Positions 10,570 to 38,412 of a DNA stretch of 40,766 nucleotides are shown here, piece by piece. Under the pieces are notes generated by a model. It did not search any database. It saw only the letters and a list, made by a program, of their open reading frames with translations, and was not told the DNA's origin. Each line of letters begins with the position of its first letter. Within the stretch, counting starts at the first letter, position 1. The stretch is from Kagunavirus LF7074P3, in the sequence record OZ035791.1. One strand, 5' to 3'. The translations under genes and the position numbers were made by a program.

Positions 10570-10574
10570 AACTA

Positions 10575-10597
10575 AGGCCCCGAAAGGGGCCTTTTTC
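10575..10597. terminator. bidirectional rho-independent terminator
   Basis: AGGCCCC-GAAA-GGGGCCT hairpin + TTTTT; sits between convergent genes (9397..10569 + and 10598..11152 -). Confidence 0.8.
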
Positions 10598-11152
10598 TTA
10601 CAAACCTAATTTTAAAGCAATGTCTATAACGTTCGATTTAACGTCACCTGGTAGGATGTAGGTGTCGTAATCTTTTACACCGCTAACATCATACAGATAA
10701 CCGCGGCTGTCCCCCTCAAACGTATAGCCTTCTCGGTGCAGGCGAACGATTCTTACATCATGACCCGCGGCGACGATAGGGGCCACTTCGCTGGCGAACC
10801 CGCCGTCGGACACTACAAAAACTTCGTTGCCGTCGGGCAAGTTTTCAGCAAGATACTTACCGAAATAATCACTACCAAGTACCGGTTTAATGAATTGCTC
10901 AGATATAGCAATCATGAACTGACGCCGCGACAAGCCATTAAGGAAGCCTTCTGGCTTTTCTTTCCGCGCTCGGTCGTCGTAGCCGTCGAGAAACTCGTGG
11001 TAAGCACCCGGGCCTAACGCTGCCAGAGCAATATTGAACATTGGATTCTTGAAACTGGTAGTTCCCTTCGCAAAGCCCATCTCTACCAGCGCCATAGCAA
11101 GTGTGTCTTTCCCGCAACCCGCAGGGCCATTAAGAATAATTACCATAGCCAT
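10598..11152 (-). CDS. P-loop nucleotide kinase (dNMP-kinase-like)
   Basis: 184-aa ORF with Walker A GPAGCGKDT at N-terminus (SGKDT resembles T4 gp1-type dNMP kinases); start overlaps upstream stop (TAATG). Confidence 0.55.
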   Translation of the reverse strand: MAMVIILNGPAGCGKDTLAMALVEMGFAKGTTSFKNPMFNIALAALGPGAYHEFLDGYDDRARKEKPEGFLNGLSRRQFMIAISEQFIKPVLGSDYFGKYLAENLPDGNEVFVVSDGGFASEVAPIVAAGHDVRIVRLHREGYTFEGDSRGYLYDVSGVKDYDTYILPGDVKSNVIDIALKLGL

Positions 11153-11637
11153 TACTTATCACTCCCGTGCGATTTTAAGTGTGTAGAGTTCCCGTTACAG
11201 TCGTATTCAGTAACCGCGTGAGTGGTTATACCGAGGCCACGGAAATGCTTTATTACCGCTGGCGAGTCGTCGAATGCGCACAAGATTCTTTCCAGCCCGA
11301 TAGTACGTAGCACCTCTTCCTTAATTACGATGTCTTTTCTGTTGTCGTGTTTGCTGCGCATGATTAACTGATAAAATTCGACGCGGTGGCGCTGCAACCA
11401 CATTCTGGTTTCTTTTTCCGCGTCATCACTACGGCCTGTTAAGATAATAACGGCATAGCGACGATTAAGGGCGTTACACAGTTCGATGTTATCTTTAATG
11501 GGTGCATCGTCTTTGCACGCCATGTTAAATGGTTTCCACGCCCAGGTTTCGCCGTAGTTATCTTTCGGCAGCAGGTGTAAACGATGAGCACCATCTGCCA
11601 ATGTCCCGTCTAAATCGAAAATCACAATATCTTTCAT
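11152..11637 (-). CDS. HAD-family phosphatase, T4 Pnk 3'-phosphatase-like
   Basis: 161-aa ORF; N-terminal DLDGTL (DxDGT nucleophile motif), later TGRSDD, RKDIVIKEEV and AFDDSP segments paralleling T4 polynucleotide kinase phosphatase domain (recall-based). Confidence 0.65.
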   Translation of the reverse strand: MKDIVIFDLDGTLADGAHRLHLLPKDNYGETWAWKPFNMACKDDAPIKDNIELCNALNRRYAVIILTGRSDDAEKETRMWLQRHRVEFYQLIMRSKHDNRKDIVIKEEVLRTIGLERILCAFDDSPAVIKHFRGLGITTHAVTEYDCNGNSTHLKSHGSDK

Positions 11638-12770
11638 CCAAGCATCTCCGGTGAAATAGTTAAACGTGCGACCTCGCCATATTCGGCGCTATAAGTAATT
11701 ACGTTTGCACTGCGGCCCGACATCCACCCACCGCGGGAGGCATATGCATCTTTAGCCGCGAGAGTGCGGTGTTGCTCAACAATCATGTTACGGCTTTCTA
11801 CAATCTTTTGGTGGTGCAGGTGACCCACGTGGGCGTAGCTGTAAACACTCTCTCCGAACGCTTTGCGGAACTTGGCGATCATAACCGGTTCGATAGCGTC
11901 GAATCGTGCTTTATGCCCATGATGGAAGAACAGCGTCGTTTTGCCGTGTTGCACCATCTTGTAAACATCCGGCGACGTATCGACGAACACACGCGGCTCA
12001 TTGTCGTACAGCGTACTAAACATCTCAGCTAACCAAATCATTCCGCTTTCGTCGTGGTTACCTTGCACGATAAGCAAGCGAACATTTTTATGTTTAACGA
12101 GAGCCATATCAATGACACGGCGGACCATACGAATCATGTAGCGTACAAGTTTCTGATAGCGGGTGTCAGCGTCAAGAACATGGCCACTTGCGGGTGTAAC
12201 GGCATCCAGACTATCGAAGTGCGCGAAGTCACCTAGCAGGTTAATAACTCCTGTTCCCGCATCTGGCGCTTTCTGAAACGCTGCGTCGAACCATCGAGAG
12301 AACAGGTCTTCTGCGATTTTCATATCCCAGTCGTCGCCGCTCTCGTCGGCCCATGCCAGCATACCGAGATGAAAATCAGATACAGTGTAAAGATTGAGTA
12401 GCTTGTCGTCACGTTTGGTGCGCACGGCTTTAACCGGCGCAACGGGGGTAATCTCTGACTTCATGCCCTCAATTACGGCTTTCATAGCCTCTAACTGTTT
12501 CTCTTTATCCGGCTCGGAAATCACCCACGTCATCACCTCTTCGCCATTAGCCTTTACGCAAGCGGATATTCTTTTAGCAGAGAACCCTTCCGCTATGCGT
12601 TTGGATATTACTGGGTCGTTCCCGTGACCTATGCCCTTCTTGGCTAATCGTGCTTTACGGATACGAATTACGCGGTCTGAGATGCCGTATTTACGGGCGA
12701 TGTCTATATTCCTCATCCCGGCGCTCAATTCTTCCTGTAACTGTTCGTCGGTTATTTTCTTCTGGGCCAT
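11634..12770 (-). CDS. metallophosphoesterase with N-terminal HTH domain
   Basis: Calcineurin-like motifs SDFH, GDFAHFD, GNHDE, HHGH, GHLHH; N-terminal HTH-like ...IDIARKYGISDRVIRIRK...; ATG 12770 chosen (RBS GAGGAAG); track ORF extends to 12875. Confidence 0.65.
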   Translation of the reverse strand: MAQKKITDEQLQEELSAGMRNIDIARKYGISDRVIRIRKARLAKKGIGHGNDPVISKRIAEGFSAKRISACVKANGEEVMTWVISEPDKEKQLEAMKAVIEGMKSEITPVAPVKAVRTKRDDKLLNLYTVSDFHLGMLAWADESGDDWDMKIAEDLFSRWFDAAFQKAPDAGTGVINLLGDFAHFDSLDAVTPASGHVLDADTRYQKLVRYMIRMVRRVIDMALVKHKNVRLLIVQGNHDESGMIWLAEMFSTLYDNEPRVFVDTSPDVYKMVQHGKTTLFFHHGHKARFDAIEPVMIAKFRKAFGESVYSYAHVGHLHHQKIVESRNMIVEQHRTLAAKDAYASRGGWMSGRSANVITYSAEYGEVARLTISPEMLG

Positions 12771-12808: not shown

Positions 12809-13000
12809 CTACTTCTCTTTCACGTTCGAGTTGCAAGCCCAGATTAAAATAAAGACCCACGGCAGCAGAACCCAACCAAGAAACAGATTAGCCATGAATA
12901 TCGCTAACTTCGCTTTATGGTTACGGAAGTACGCAACCAGGAAAGGCGCGAAATAAGCGAGCAGTGCAAACAGAATTAAGGAAACTGGTAAACTGGACAT
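12809..13000 (-). CDS. small 2-TM membrane protein, superinfection-immunity (Imm) family-like
   Basis: 63 aa from ATG 13000 (RBS AAGGGG); ...AYFRNHKAKLAIFMANLFLGWVLLPWVFILIWA... resembles Imm_superinfect-type small membrane proteins (recall-based). Confidence 0.45.
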   Translation of the reverse strand: MSSLPVSLILFALLAYFAPFLVAYFRNHKAKLAIFMANLFLGWVLLPWVFILIWACNSNVKEK

Positions 13001-13030
13001 TTTAAACCCCTTCATTGTTGGTGTAAGTGA

Positions 13031-13059
13031 ATAGTACCCTATTATATTGGGGTGTGCAA
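13031..13059 (-). promoter_or_regulatory. sigma70-like promoter TTGCAC-N17-TACTAT driving the minus-strand island
   Basis: Minus-strand reading cTTGCACaccccaatATAATAGGGTACTATTCAC; 32/34 identical to promoter at 34757-34790. Confidence 0.6.
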
Positions 13060-13167
13060 GTAATGTGATAGAATAAGTTTGCGCCTAGTGTCGCACACGA
13101 AAAGCGGGTGGTTCCCGTCTGGCGCATTTATCGTTAACCTGTAACCTCTTAACCAAAGGATTAAAGA

Positions 13168-13584
13168 ATGAAACTTTCTGATTTTTATTTCGAAGAGAAA
13201 GCACTGGTAGGCAAGAAGATGCCCATTCTGCTGCCAAACGGCGAAGACTCCGGTGAATGGCTTAACGTTGTAAGTCCCGATGCGGATGTCGCCGTTAAAG
13301 CGGGGCGTGCTTTCATTATTGCGTACCGTCGCGGGTTGGCGCGTTTCGAAGAACTGGAAAAAGCCGCCAAAGAATCCGGCGACTATACTGAATATAACCT
13401 GGCTATTAACGAACTGGCGGAAGACCTCAACCGGCAACTCGCGGCAGAAGTCGTAAACGGCTGGAGCTTTGATGAGCCTTTCTCTAAAGAAGCATTTAAC
13501 AAATTGCTGGACCAGTTCAAGGCATTAGGCACACAGGTAGCAGCGTTCCATAACGCTGAGCGCAAAGCATTACAGGAAAAGTAG
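13168..13584 (+). CDS. tail assembly chaperone (G-like)
   Basis: 138-aa acidic ORF immediately upstream of tape measure gene; RBS AGGA; ends at slippery G GAA AAG TAG. Confidence 0.55.
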   Translation: MKLSDFYFEEKALVGKKMPILLPNGEDSGEWLNVVSPDADVAVKAGRAFIIAYRRGLARFEELEKAAKESGDYTEYNLAINELAEDLNRQLAAEVVNGWSFDEPFSKEAFNKLLDQFKALGTQVAAFHNAERKALQEK

Positions 13585-13949
13585 ACGCGCTGTACAGGTT
13601 CGCCACCTATGAGTTTGTGGATAAGCATAAAATCAGAGAGTTTGATTCTATAGCCGACGGACACGAACAGGCGCTTATCGCGATGGGTGTAATCGATAAG
13701 AAAAAACGTGCAGCGCGACGGGGTGGGCCAGAATGCCCGCCCCTTTTTATATCCACCTTCGAGACGTACTGCGACATTAAGTTTACGCGACACGTGCGCG
13801 AGGACGCTGTAGTATTGTTCGCAAGAGAATCCGTTACGTGGCAAGACCTGAAAGCCTATCTCGATGTTACGCAAAAACAGCTTAGCCTGTTCGAGATAGA
13901 CATTATCATGGGCTTAGAAGCAATCTTTGAAGGTAGAAATCATGGCTGA
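13560..13949 (+). CDS. tail assembly chaperone -1 frameshift extension (T-like)
   Basis: -1 frame is open from 13560 to 13949 overlapping the end of 13168..13584; slippery heptamer G GAA AAG at 13575-13581 resembles lambda G-T site G GGA AAG. Confidence 0.4.
   Translation, partial: AQSITGKVDALYRFATYEFVDKHKIREFDSIADGHEQALIAMGVIDKKKRAARRGGPECPPLFISTFETYCDIKFTRHVREDAVVLFARESVTWQDLKAYLDVTQKQLSLFEIDIIMGLEAIFEGRNHG
13575..13581 (+). other. candidate -1 programmed frameshift site
   Basis: G GAA AAG immediately before stop TAG of the chaperone ORF. Confidence 0.4.
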
Positions 13950-16215
13950 TACCGCTAGCTTGATCGTACGAGTATCATCGACCGGCGTCGATAAAACCAC
14001 ATCACAACTGAACGGGCTTACCAAAGCCGCGGGGGCCGCCGCCGCTGCCGTTGTCAGTCTGGAAACTGCCAAACAGGTGTTCAGTGCGCTGGTGGACTCC
14101 CAGCGCAACTTCGATAAGCTGAACTCCGGCCTCATCACAATGACCGGGAGCGCTGAGAACGCGGCTAAGGCTTTCAGCGTCCTGCAACAGTTCGCAAAAG
14201 AAACCCCATATGGTCTTAACCAGGCGGTGGAAGGCTTTACTAAGCTGGTGGCCCTCGGCCTGAACCCAAGCAAAGAGGCGTTAATCTCCTACGGCAACAC
14301 CGCGGCGGCTATGGGTAAAGACCTTAATCAGATGATTGAGGCGGTTGCCGACGCCAGTACCTTTGAGTTTGAGCGACTGAAAGAGTTCGGTATCAAGTCT
14401 TCCCAACAGGCAGATACCGTTTCGTTCACGTTCCGCGGCGTCACCACCACGGTTAAAAAGAACTCCGAAGAGATTCAGAAATACCTGCTAAACATCGGCA
14501 ACACCGATTTCGCCGGGGCGATGGAGACGCGCTCTAAGACGTTAGACGGTCAGTTGTCGAGCCTGGCGGACTCCTTTGATGGCCTTGTACTTGCGGTAGC
14601 GCAATCCGGTTTCGGCGACGCCGTAGGTGAGCAAGCCGCGAAGGCAGAAGACGCTATTTCGGCACTCACCGACGCCATTGCGTCTAATGAGATAGCCGCC
14701 ACGCTCCAGGATTGGGTGACACTGTTCAATGAATCATTCAAGTTTATTTCTGATGCCTTAAACGACCTGGCATACGATACCGAGGACAAATCCGCGGATA
14801 TGTCAGACTCGCTGGGTACTATACCGGATGCTATCCGTGAATGGTTGCCTGACATCCAGCAGACGTTTCACGAGGTTATTGCGTGGTTCCAGCGCATTGA
14901 CGATTACGCCGTAGCGTTAGGTCAGACCCTCGCAGACGTGTTTGATCCGAGCAAAACGGCAGCACTCACATTTAAAAACCTGACCGCAGAAGCTGACGCC
15001 GCATACGCCGCCAGCATAAAACGCGCCGAGGCCGAATCACAGGCCATCACCAACAGGTCTAAGCAGCGTAAGAAAGAAATTGAGGAACAGCGCAAGCAGT
15101 ACAACGAGCGTAAGAAGCAAGAAATAGACTTAGCCAGCCTTGTTAATAAAAAGGGCGGAACTGGTGGGGCAGGAAATGCCAACGACAAAGACGCGAAAGC
15201 CGCCGCTAAGAAAGCGGAGCAATTGCGCAAACAAGCCCAGGATTACCTCGACACTTTGGCCCGTCAGAACAACGACGAGTTAAAGGCTATCGACGCGCAG
15301 GAACAGCAGAAACTGGCTAAGGCAAAAGAGTTCTACAGCCAGGGCGCGTTGTCCCTGAAAGAATATGAACAAGCTAAAACAGCTATCGTCCTCGAAGCCG
15401 GGCAAAAACGACAAGATGAACTGGATAAACGCCAGAAAGAAGCCCAGGAAAAGCAACAGAAAGGTGACGACTTCATGGCTCAGATTATGGGTCAGAACGC
15501 TACTGAGCTTGAGCTTCTCGACATCCAGGAACAGCAGAAACTGGCGGTAGCGGATAAGTACCGCGAGCAGGGTTTTATTAGCGAGAAGCAGTATCAGGCC
15601 GCTCTTAACGCCATCAACGAGCAATACGCAACCAAACGTGCCGATGCAACGGCAACGGCCTTTGGTAACATGGCCTCAAACATCGGGTCTGCGTTGGGTG
15701 AGGCTTCTGGCGCGTACAAGGCATTCGCTATCGTACAGGCAACTATCGCCACGTACACCGCAGCTATTGAGGCGTACAAGTCAACGGCAGCTATCCCTGT
15801 AGTTGGCCCGTTCCTGGCCCCTGTAGCCGCTGCCGCTGCCGTTGGTGCAGGTATGGCGCAGGTTTCCGCTATCCGGTCCGCGCGTGAACAGGGCGGACAG
15901 TTATCCGCAGGGCAGGCTTCCACCATCGCAGAACGCGGTAAACCAGAAGTTATTATGCCGGCTGGCGCATCTCGTGTTCGCACAGCACAGCAGATGAAAG
16001 AAATTATGGGGCAAAACGGGTCTTCTTCCGGCCCGTCTAATGTTACTATCGTAAACAACACGAGTTCTCAAATCGGCAACGTATCCACTGAGCAAGATGA
16101 CGAAGGCCGTTTGCGAATCATCATCGAGGAGCAGGTGGCTGCCTCTTTGCAGAATAGCAACAGCAAGATTAGCAAGGCCCGCAAAGCCACAAGAAATGCG
16201 CCGGGGTTTAAATAA
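13942..16215 (+). CDS. tail tape measure protein
   Basis: Longest tail-region ORF; coiled-coil-rich, Ala/Gln/Lys-rich, internal 20-bp exact direct repeat; ATG 13942 preferred over TTG 13927. Confidence 0.8.
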   Translation: MADTASLIVRVSSTGVDKTTSQLNGLTKAAGAAAAAVVSLETAKQVFSALVDSQRNFDKLNSGLITMTGSAENAAKAFSVLQQFAKETPYGLNQAVEGFTKLVALGLNPSKEALISYGNTAAAMGKDLNQMIEAVADASTFEFERLKEFGIKSSQQADTVSFTFRGVTTTVKKNSEEIQKYLLNIGNTDFAGAMETRSKTLDGQLSSLADSFDGLVLAVAQSGFGDAVGEQAAKAEDAISALTDAIASNEIAATLQDWVTLFNESFKFISDALNDLAYDTEDKSADMSDSLGTIPDAIREWLPDIQQTFHEVIAWFQRIDDYAVALGQTLADVFDPSKTAALTFKNLTAEADAAYAASIKRAEAESQAITNRSKQRKKEIEEQRKQYNERKKQEIDLASLVNKKGGTGGAGNANDKDAKAAAKKAEQLRKQAQDYLDTLARQNNDELKAIDAQEQQKLAKAKEFYSQGALSLKEYEQAKTAIVLEAGQKRQDELDKRQKEAQEKQQKGDDFMAQIMGQNATELELLDIQEQQKLAVADKYREQGFISEKQYQAALNAINEQYATKRADATATAFGNMASNIGSALGEASGAYKAFAIVQATIATYTAAIEAYKSTAAIPVVGPFLAPVAAAAAVGAGMAQVSAIRSAREQGGQLSAGQASTIAERGKPEVIMPAGASRVRTAQQMKEIMGQNGSSSGPSNVTIVNNTSSQIGNVSTEQDDEGRLRIIIEEQVAASLQNSNSKISKARKATRNAPGFK

Positions 16216-37372: not shown

Positions 37373-37681
37373 TTGGATAAATTTACTGAAACAGTGACAG
37401 GCTGGCTTCTCGCCGCCGCGCTCGCCGGAGGGGTCATCGGACTACGACAACATAAGTCCGTTATTTCTGGCCCTATCGACGGATTCTGCTTTATTGCTAC
37501 TGGTTTCGCCTGCGCTGTATTTGGCGCACCTCTCGCGGCTCAATGGTTCGGTATCACGGGCGACCGTGAAATCGCTGGCCTTGGCTTCATCATCGCTATT
37601 CTCTGGATGCCTATCTATTCCCGTCTCTCCAGTATCGTCGCTGGAGAATACATCGCACGTCGAGGAGGCACAGATGAATGA
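37373..37681 (+). CDS. holin (3-TMD, class I-like)
   Basis: 102 aa with three hydrophobic segments and charged C-terminus; TTG start; directly upstream of lysozyme gene. Confidence 0.6.
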   Translation: MDKFTETVTGWLLAAALAGGVIGLRQHKSVISGPIDGFCFIATGFACAVFGAPLAAQWFGITGDREIAGLGFIIAILWMPIYSRLSSIVAGEYIARRGGTDE

Positions 37682-37946
37682 GTTATTCTGGTTCGGCGGT
37701 ATGCTGGCAATCGGCGGCACATCGCTGTTTAATGTATACCATCCGAGCGTGGATGACGGGCTATTTGGTCGGGTGCTCTATATCCTGACTGCTATCGTCT
37801 GCGCTGCCGGATGTATCCACCTGTTACAGGGCAGCATGTCGCCGACGCTGCCTGAGACATTAATCACATTAGTTGCGCTGCGTCAGATTCGTCAGGCGTG
37901 GCTGTCATACGGAGGACATAAGCGTGTCTCGAAACATTTCAGATAA
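37674..37946 (+). CDS. second holin-like 2-TMD membrane protein (holin/antiholin candidate)
   Basis: 90 aa from ATG 37674 with strong RBS AGGAGG; two hydrophobic segments; overlaps both neighbours. Confidence 0.5.
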   Translation: MNELFWFGGMLAIGGTSLFNVYHPSVDDGLFGRVLYILTAIVCAAGCIHLLQGSMSPTLPETLITLVALRQIRQAWLSYGGHKRVSKHFR

Positions 37947-38412
37947 TGGATTGCATTTTACCGCCGCGTTTGAGGGGTTCCGCGGAACTGCGTATCGTGC
38001 TACGCCATCGGAAAAATACTTAACTACAGGCTACGGTCATTACGGGCCGGACGTGGCCCCAGGCAAGACCATCACGCCAGGGCAAGGCCTCCTGTTACTG
38101 AACCGTGATATGGCTAAGGCCGTAGCTGCGGTTGACGCAGCGGCGCACCATTCGCTAACACAGGCGCAGTTTGATGCAGTGTGCGACCTGGTCTATAACG
38201 CGGGGGCCGGCGTTATTTCGGCTACTACCGGTACAGGTAAGGCACTGCGCTCCGGTGATATCGCGACGTTACGGGCTAAACTGGCGCTGTTCATCAACCA
38301 GAACGGCAAACCGTTACTGGGCCTTCGCCGCCGTACCGCCGGTCGCCTGGCGCTGTTTGACGGTAAACCGTGGCAAGAGGCGGAGGCTATCGGGCGCGCG
38401 GTGAAAGGTTGA
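37924..38412 (+). CDS. endolysin (phage lysozyme, GH24-like)
   Basis: ...AFEGFRGTAYRATPSEKYLTTGYGHYG... lysozyme-like catalytic region; GTG 37924 with AGGAGGA upstream. Confidence 0.7.
   Translation: MSRNISDNGLHFTAAFEGFRGTAYRATPSEKYLTTGYGHYGPDVAPGKTITPGQGLLLLNRDMAKAVAAVDAAAHHSLTQAQFDAVCDLVYNAGAGVISATTGTGKALRSGDIATLRAKLALFINQNGKPLLGLRRRTAGRLALFDGKPWQEAEAIGRAVKG

Follow-up and report, generated by a model that had tools for sequence, protein, structure and literature searches.

The window analysed here, by which we mean the whole stretch of Kagunavirus LF7074P3 DNA (40,766 nucleotides, 40.8 kb), is, in essence, the complete genome of a siphovirus of E. coli that resembles K1G (Guernseyvirinae, genus Kagunavirus). 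Its gene order is that of the annotated phage fTaEco03: the plus strand carries the terminase, head and tail genes, the minus strand those for replication, and the lysis cassette lies towards the right end. A block of four co-oriented minus-strand genes (hereafter the island) separates the major tail protein gene from the tail-chaperone/tape-measure genes; its first gene, imm, is the subject of this analysis. The 3.5 kb around imm are 99.4% identical to Kagunavirus LF7074P1 and 93–97% identical to fTaEco03, K1G and K1ind phages. We rejected the idea that the minus-strand block is compositionally foreign DNA, as GC content stays at 0.43–0.53 throughout and only the strand skew flips there. No Rfam family matched anywhere in the window. 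The features on which the following account draws are:

10574..10593, both strands: bidirectional intrinsic-terminator-like hairpin, 8-bp stem with 6 GC pairs, T-runs on both strands
10598..11152, minus: fourth island gene, P-loop kinase (PHROG 139 'deoxynucleoside monophosphate kinase', E 2.3e-43)
11152..11637, minus: third island gene, HAD-type polynucleotide kinase-phosphatase phosphatase domain (PF25109 HAD_PNKP, 69.8 bits; PHROG 415)
11634..12770, minus: second island gene, N-terminal HTH-like region and calcineurin-like metallophosphoesterase domain
12809..13000, minus: imm CDS, 192 nt with stop codon, 63 aa; PF14373 Imm_superinfect family, two hydrophobic helices
13007..13012, minus: Shine-Dalgarno site AAGGGG, 6 nt upstream of ATG 13000, read from the sequence
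13031..13059, minus: candidate promoter P2, TTGCAC (13059-13054), 17 nt spacer, TACTAT (13036-13031)
13041..13069, minus: candidate promoter P1, ATCACA, 17 nt spacer, TATAAT; 10/12 to consensus (scanner)
13942..16215, plus: tape measure protein gene, 757 aa; PF20155 TMP_3 at 38.8 bits, just under the 41-bit cut-off; annotated in relatives

An earlier note on this DNA had placed an open reading frame at 12809-13000 and had left its strand unstated; the gene is real and has these coordinates, on the minus strand. It runs from an ATG at 13000 to a TAG stop at 12811-12809 and encodes the 63-aa product MSSLPVSLILFALLAYFAPFLVAYFRNHKAKLAIFMANLFLGWVLLPWVFILIWACNSNVKEK, in which the string quoted in that note, AIFMANLFLGWVLLPWVFILIWA, makes up residues 33-55. 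The mechanical list of open reading frames gives a longer form of 68 aa from an upstream ATG at 13015. We preferred the start at 13000 because it has a Shine-Dalgarno site at 6 nt, whereas the ATG at 13015 has none, because in relatives L007, L014 and L020 a stop closes the frame upstream of the conserved MSSLP start, so that the 68-aa form is absent there, and because the RefSeq K1G and fTaEco03 annotations both use the 192-nt CDS.

Hydropathy analysis gave two hydrophobic segments (~4-25 and ~32-55) split by a basic loop, R26-N-H-K-A-K31, whose R26, H28, K29 and K31 are the only internal charges of the protein. AlphaFold2, run on a shallow alignment, returned a two-helix hairpin (helices 3-25 and 29-61, mean pLDDT 76), in agreement with the two transmembrane segments that had been claimed. 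Applied to this hydropathy, the positive-inside rule predicts an inner-membrane location with a periplasmic N-terminus. Searching the model against BFVD folds gave no matches, as expected for a bare helical hairpin, and a phmmer search of PDB sequences had no hit at E ≤ 10 in a copy from which the T4 Imm-TMP model is absent.

In order to assess selection on imm, we compared 17 copies that share the first-helix form of the window (allele A, see below), the window included, taken from IMG/VR contigs and GenBank/RefSeq genome records. Variable sites fell 33, 6 and 3 times at codon positions 3, 1 and 2, respectively, the amino acid was altered in 6 of the 36 polymorphic codons, and the most divergent pair had a dN/dS of 0.035/0.655, or ~0.05. 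The imm gene is thus under strong purifying selection. At 63 codons the frame is short enough to have opened by chance in an intergenic or antisense region, and the neighbouring ORF at 13002-13127 (minus) does look spurious even though it is annotated in one relative; however, the Pfam match (E ~1e-12), the excess of third-position changes, the Shine-Dalgarno site and conservation across two phage genera leave a chance origin a negligible probability, and we excluded it. The gene sits at the same position in 18 fetched Kagunavirus loci (the 17 with allele A, counting the window, and L016), in phage XY1 and in the Jerseyvirus Ent1, and it is present at the same place beside the tail-chaperone/tape-measure genes in every Kagunavirus or Jerseyvirus locus whose sequence reaches there. 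Several public phages encode a 100% identical protein, and tblastn detected it in 367 phage records, T4-like myoviruses among them.

The earlier note had likened the protein to superinfection-immunity type membrane proteins, and the profile search it proposed was clearly positive. The 63-aa form matched PF14373 Imm_superinfect at 48.6 bits (E 7.5e-13; gathering score 27.9) over residues 16-56, corresponding to profile positions 2-42 of 42; the 68-aa form scored 48.3 bits against the same profile and matched PHROG 1039 'immunity to superinfection' over its residues 7-67 (83 bits, E 4.7e-23). T4 Imm, taken from the T4 genome record, scored 58.2 bits on PF14373, and BLASTP aligned the two proteins with 15 of 54 residues identical (28%), ungapped, at E 2e-10. 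The ORF product is therefore a member of the Imm_superinfect (T4 Imm) family. A secondary match to PF11742 DUF3302 (18.4 bits, cut-off 32 bits) was rejected and probably reflects hydrophobic composition. Neither NCBIfam nor PADLOC returned a model for the protein.

A word-indexed search for homologues yielded 9 near-identical clusters only, and the breadth of the family emerged from an exhaustive HMMER search over 1.84 billion representative proteins (E ≤ 0.001), which gave 5,463 clusters (50% identity), between 58 and 315 aa long. Many of these relatives come from metagenomic contigs, and others are encoded on bacterial chromosomes, C. jejuni Cj0423 for example; chromosomal members in Campylobacter and Acidobacteria lie outside intact prophages. 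By cluster look-up, the nearest relatives beyond Guernseyvirinae were metagenomic singletons that offer no taxonomic insight. Residue conservation was assessed in 152 sequences, namely the best 150 of the 5,463 clusters together with the window's Imm protein and T4 Imm. The family signature, Y-F-x-P ... A-x-x-R-x-H ... N-L-F-L-G-W ... W ... W-A-C, is present in the protein: Y16 (92%), F17 (90%), P19 (100%), A23 (94%), R26 (98%), H28 (96%), N38 (92%), G42 (97%), W43 (98%), W48 (98%) and W54 (98%), together with I34, A55 and C56, are each conserved in 71-100% of the sequences. Departures of this lineage from the consensus are V44 for T (84%), P47 for G (91%) and I51 for A (80%), and position 44, beside W43, is polymorphic (V, I, A, N). 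In the ungapped alignment, T4 R33 and W50 correspond to R26 and W43, and substitution of these two T4 residues (R33A, W50A) weakens exclusion by T4 Imm (bioRxiv 10.64898/2026.03.06.709160).

Because the family is large and T4 Imm is its only characterised member, the name 'superinfection immunity' is an annotation transfer, and PF14373 might instead be a general-purpose membrane module with some other host-takeover or membrane role. Such a reading would accommodate the length range of the family, whose domain also occurs in larger proteins, its chromosomal members outside intact prophages, the lack of NCBIfam and PADLOC models and the P47 of this lineage at a site where G prevails. Yet both residues required for full exclusion by T4 Imm are conserved here, the Campylobacter homologue belongs to the host operon most strongly induced upon phage infection (PMC6024767), and imm is kept beside the tail-chaperone/tape-measure genes in phages that are all virulent, for which the exclusion of competitors is a plausible benefit. 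On this balance we regard a general-purpose module as unlikely, while giving it some weight.

The identity of the gene is also a matter of public record. The annotated Guernseyvirinae Imm proteins of K1G (gp23, YP_009168803), fTaEco03 (TE3_020), Salmonella phage vB_SenS-Ent1 (gp24) and Schulenberg (QEG06814) are products of the same gene, and the K1G and fTaEco03 CDSs are identical to that of the window in length and position. In RefSeq, the identical CDS of K1G bears the annotation "immunity to superinfection", and the fTaEco03 record states that "amino acids 16-56 belong to Imm_superinfect". A 2019 paper on phage Schulenberg already noted that a Guernseyvirinae-like Imm resembles T4 Imm (PMC6763661), and the gene is listed in other genome papers as well. 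The imm gene, its family and its likely role are already present in public annotations of essentially identical phages; in this respect the locus is ordinary and holds nothing new.

Consistent with its description in the earlier note as the promoter-proximal gene of the island, imm is the first of the four genes and the first after the divergent intergenic region (13001-13167), directly downstream of sigma-70-like promoter motifs. The second island gene starts at an ATG at 12770 with the Shine-Dalgarno site GAGGAAG, 38 nt past the imm stop and with no terminator-like site in between; it matched PHROG 704 'DNA repair exonuclease' at E 4e-160, and its Metallophos and Metallophos_2 matches are weak, below the cut-off. 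Its stop is overlapped by the start of the third gene, and the fourth gene is annotated in fTaEco03 as a putative deoxynucleotide kinase. The hairpin at 10574-10593 closes both the island on the minus strand and the major tail protein gene on the plus strand. The rest of the block (10598-12770), with a stand-alone HAD phosphatase and a stand-alone P-loop kinase beside the metallophosphoesterase and with overlapping stops and starts, has the look of a split polynucleotide kinase/phosphatase in an order reversed relative to T4 Pnkp, a hint of nucleic-acid end repair. Jerseyvirus Ent1 keeps only imm and the metallophosphoesterase gene, the distal genes being swapped for an HNH endonuclease and an anti-repressor-like gene.

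Two minus-strand candidate promoters precede imm. P1 is the closer to consensus, overlaps both P2 and a plus-strand -10 element, and is only partly conserved in Ent1. P2 matches the consensus at 8/12 positions, under the reporting threshold of the scanner, and its hexamers are almost invariant from Kagunavirus to Jerseyvirus, with the CTTGCA and TA.TAT columns fixed in five sequences, Salmonella phage Ent1 included. The minus- and plus-strand candidate promoters overlap back to back across 13031-13074, where the P1 -35 hexamer ATCACA (13069-13064) shares bases with the extended -10-like TGaTAGAAT of the plus strand (13066-13074). RNA polymerase bound in one direction may therefore preclude binding in the other, and the overlap might thus switch between expression of the island and of the tail genes.

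The position of imm had been taken to fit an early exclusion function, and T4 imm is expressed early after infection. The only Kagunavirus time course we found, that of vB_Eco_K1B4, places imm in a class that peaks after 100 min, shared with DNA polymerase and methyltransferase genes, while structural genes peak earlier; sampling was in bulk and over multiple cycles (PMC12645636), and its supplement holds no per-gene expression table. Because the sampling spans more than one infection cycle, these data neither confirm nor exclude early transcription.

The same K1B4 paper lists imm as late-peaking and labels it lysis-related (PMC12645636), which raises the question of whether this Imm-family protein serves mainly in envelope protection or lysis timing, through resistance to damage by secondary adsorption or a holin/antiholin-like activity. 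T4 imm mutants are less resistant to lysis from without and their lysis inhibition collapses early, and a review has likened T4 Imm to a holin (PMC6832632); the small two-helix membrane protein encoded here would suit such a role. These T4 lysis phenotypes are, however, secondary to the DNA-entry block that defines Imm, and the K1B4 label is an uncritical annotation and not an experimental result. Moreover, the window has a lysis cassette of its own at 37373-38412, 24 kb from imm, with genes for two small, holin-like membrane proteins and a Phage_lysozyme endolysin, and no holin family appears among the Pfam matches of imm. We rejected the holin reading on these last two grounds and consider an envelope or lysis role in general to be distinctly improbable.

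While the core of Imm is nearly constant, its N-terminal part is not. Codons 1-26 and the ribosome-binding site (12923-13012, minus) form a sharply bounded divergent cassette, and the promoter region upstream of it stays conserved. The window carries first-helix allele A (MSSLPVSLILFALLAYF...), and XY1-type phages (XY1, L016) carry allele B (MTGITMFFLIIIVLVYF...). Between the two alleles, the first helix differs with a dN of 0.52 and a 10-nt indel precedes the start codon, whereas core codons 27-63, compared with phage XY1, show a dN of 0 and a dS of 0.39. One database protein (P0003) is a hybrid of alleles A and B, and Jerseyviruses have a shorter third form of the first helix.

On the other side of the divergent intergenic region, the tail assembly chaperone gene (13168-13584) and the downstream overlapping frame (13617-13949), both on the plus strand, match the programmed-frameshift pair that is annotated as a joined CDS in K1G and fTaEco03. 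The tape measure protein encoded next would represent the target class of Imm, judging from T4. It has a hydrophobic segment at ~residues 613-645, which fits siphovirus tape measure proteins also inserting into the inner membrane. In otherwise close Kagunaviruses (L003-L031) this protein is strongly mosaic, with 17-100% identity per 100 alignment columns; the replaced segments comprise the C-terminal half in L012 and L018, one central segment in L015 and the N-terminal two thirds in XY1. Comparing Imm with the tape measure protein across 18 loci with a full-length tape measure gene, 16 of which have imm, revealed no linkage between the two: the Imm core is essentially invariant and the tape measure protein mosaic, at 30-100% identity per 100 columns; allele B is found alongside two different tape measure types, and allele A also alongside a very divergent C-terminal half (L012). 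The comparison therefore gives no support for a tightly co-evolving Imm-tape measure pair.

The predicted 5' end of the tail-chaperone/tape-measure transcript carries a 47-nt conserved element (13080-13126, plus), which follows directly on the conserved TGaTAGAAT. It folds into an outer stem (TGCGCC/GGCGCA) around two hairpins, and G-U pairs assign it to the plus strand. Conservation of the element extends from Kagunavirus to Jerseyvirus and to more distant relatives in IMG/VR; L025 and L029 lack it, and it had no Rfam match. Compensatory changes reveal real covariation: one of its pairs appears as UA, AU, CG and GC, and 85.9% of the cells in the predicted pairing were paired, whereas slid controls reached no more than 53.5%. 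The structure might stabilise the mRNA at its 5' end or serve as a cis-acting regulatory or antitermination RNA. Of everything in the region, this element and not imm is the least explained. The same stretch is spanned, together with the divergent promoter region, by the 41-codon ORF at 13002-13127 (minus), whose counterpart in fTaEco03 is annotated as hypothetical and 'similar to N-terminus of superinfection immunity protein of phage Sciku'. This ORF is probably spurious, a reflection of some records in which imm is annotated as too long.

More distant relatives, with a tail chaperone of 49-64% identity, lack Imm in the minus-strand slot beside the chaperone gene and have other, unrelated small envelope proteins there:

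L021 4138-4335, minus: alternative slot cargo, small envelope protein
L025 4225-4425 and equivalents in L026-L030, minus: alternative slot cargo, small envelope proteins
L023 4015-4338, minus: alternative slot cargo, small envelope protein
L034 4007-4339, minus: alternative slot cargo, small envelope protein
L022 1900-2238, minus: alternative slot cargo, small envelope protein
L037 3975-4337, minus: alternative slot cargo, small envelope protein

This cargo is of three types, a 65-aa two-helix protein, single-pass proteins of ~66-87 aa (weak YebO-like match, PHROG 5031) and proteins of ~107-137 aa with signal peptides (PHROG 14165 / 34162), which suggests that the slot is an exchangeable place for envelope-protein cargo. 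A bolder and rather doubtful extension is that Guernseyvirinae-like phages keep a dedicated slot for exclusion cargo, with divergent promoters that overlap the tail promoter, a swappable helix that could tune specificity, and products that act on the tape measure protein of competitors.

Taking these lines of evidence together, we favour as the probable function of this Imm-family protein a block of DNA entry by later phages, most likely exerted as in T4 through the tape measure protein. Host RNA polymerase would read the minus-strand block from the sigma-70-like promoter(s) at ~13031-13069, with imm as the first cistron. The 63-aa protein would then enter the inner membrane as a helical hairpin with its basic loop (R26-K31) in the cytoplasm, and would stop the DNA of later-arriving phages at that membrane by engaging the tape measure protein of the incoming virion, so that, as proposed for T4 Imm, a translocation conduit would not form; R26 and W43 would be the functionally critical residues. 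When T4 Imm is purified from membranes, a fragment of the tape measure protein gp29 comes with it (bioRxiv 10.64898/2026.03.06.709160). For the phage studied here, tape measure interception is a reading we infer, given the 28% identity to T4 Imm and the different tail type, and our literature search found no exclusion experiment on any Guernseyvirinae Imm.

Phages of this genus are applied against K1 and uropathogenic E. coli. In phage therapy and cocktail design, an exclusion protein would set which phages can co-infect and recombine. The locus also offers a simple siphovirus test of the T4 mechanism, namely the binding of Imm to the tape measure protein: Imm here has 63 aa, the phage is small and tractable, first-helix alleles occur naturally, and the tape measure protein is naturally mosaic among close relatives.

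T4 Imm (NP_049660 / UniProt P08986) and the protein described here both come from virulent phages and share a variable N-terminal hydrophobic helix followed by a conserved 42-residue core. They differ in that T4 Imm has 83 aa and ends in a charged C-terminal tail, which is missing from the 63-aa protein, and reads NWSIIGW where the latter has GWVLLPW. T4 imm sits between genes 42 and 43, in a group of early replication genes, and is distant from the tape measure gene; unlike in T4, imm in Kagunavirus is back to back with the tail-chaperone/tape-measure operon. T4 is a myovirus, whereas the phage studied here is a siphovirus with a tape measure protein unrelated to that of T4, and the function of T4 Imm is experimentally established, while that of Kagunavirus Imm is deduced from its family. 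Campylobacter jejuni Cj0423 and other chromosomal PF14373 proteins belong to the same Pfam family but are encoded by bacteria and not by a virulent phage; the induction of Cj0423 by phage also points to a phage-related role.

HK97 gp15, likewise a small inner-membrane protein of a siphovirus, has been proposed to block DNA entry via the tape measure protein, a parallel drawn in the T4 preprint (bioRxiv 10.64898/2026.03.06.709160), but gp15 is expressed from a prophage, whereas the phage studied here has no lysogeny module, and no likeness in sequence between gp15 and Imm would be expected. The same preprint offers the analogy of immunity proteins, in which a small inner-membrane protein bars the membrane insertion of a helical pore-forming domain (bioRxiv 10.64898/2026.03.06.709160). 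With colicin-type immunity proteins the likeness is one of function only; they have no sequence relationship to Imm. Colicin-type immunity genes adjoin the gene of the protein they neutralise and have the opposite orientation. The layout of imm and the tape measure gene resembles this arrangement, and if the slot beside the chaperone gene were indeed dedicated to exclusion cargo, its organisation would resemble a colicin/immunity gene pair, with the difference that the proposed target of Imm arrives on the virion of a competitor, whereas the colicin-type target is a toxin.
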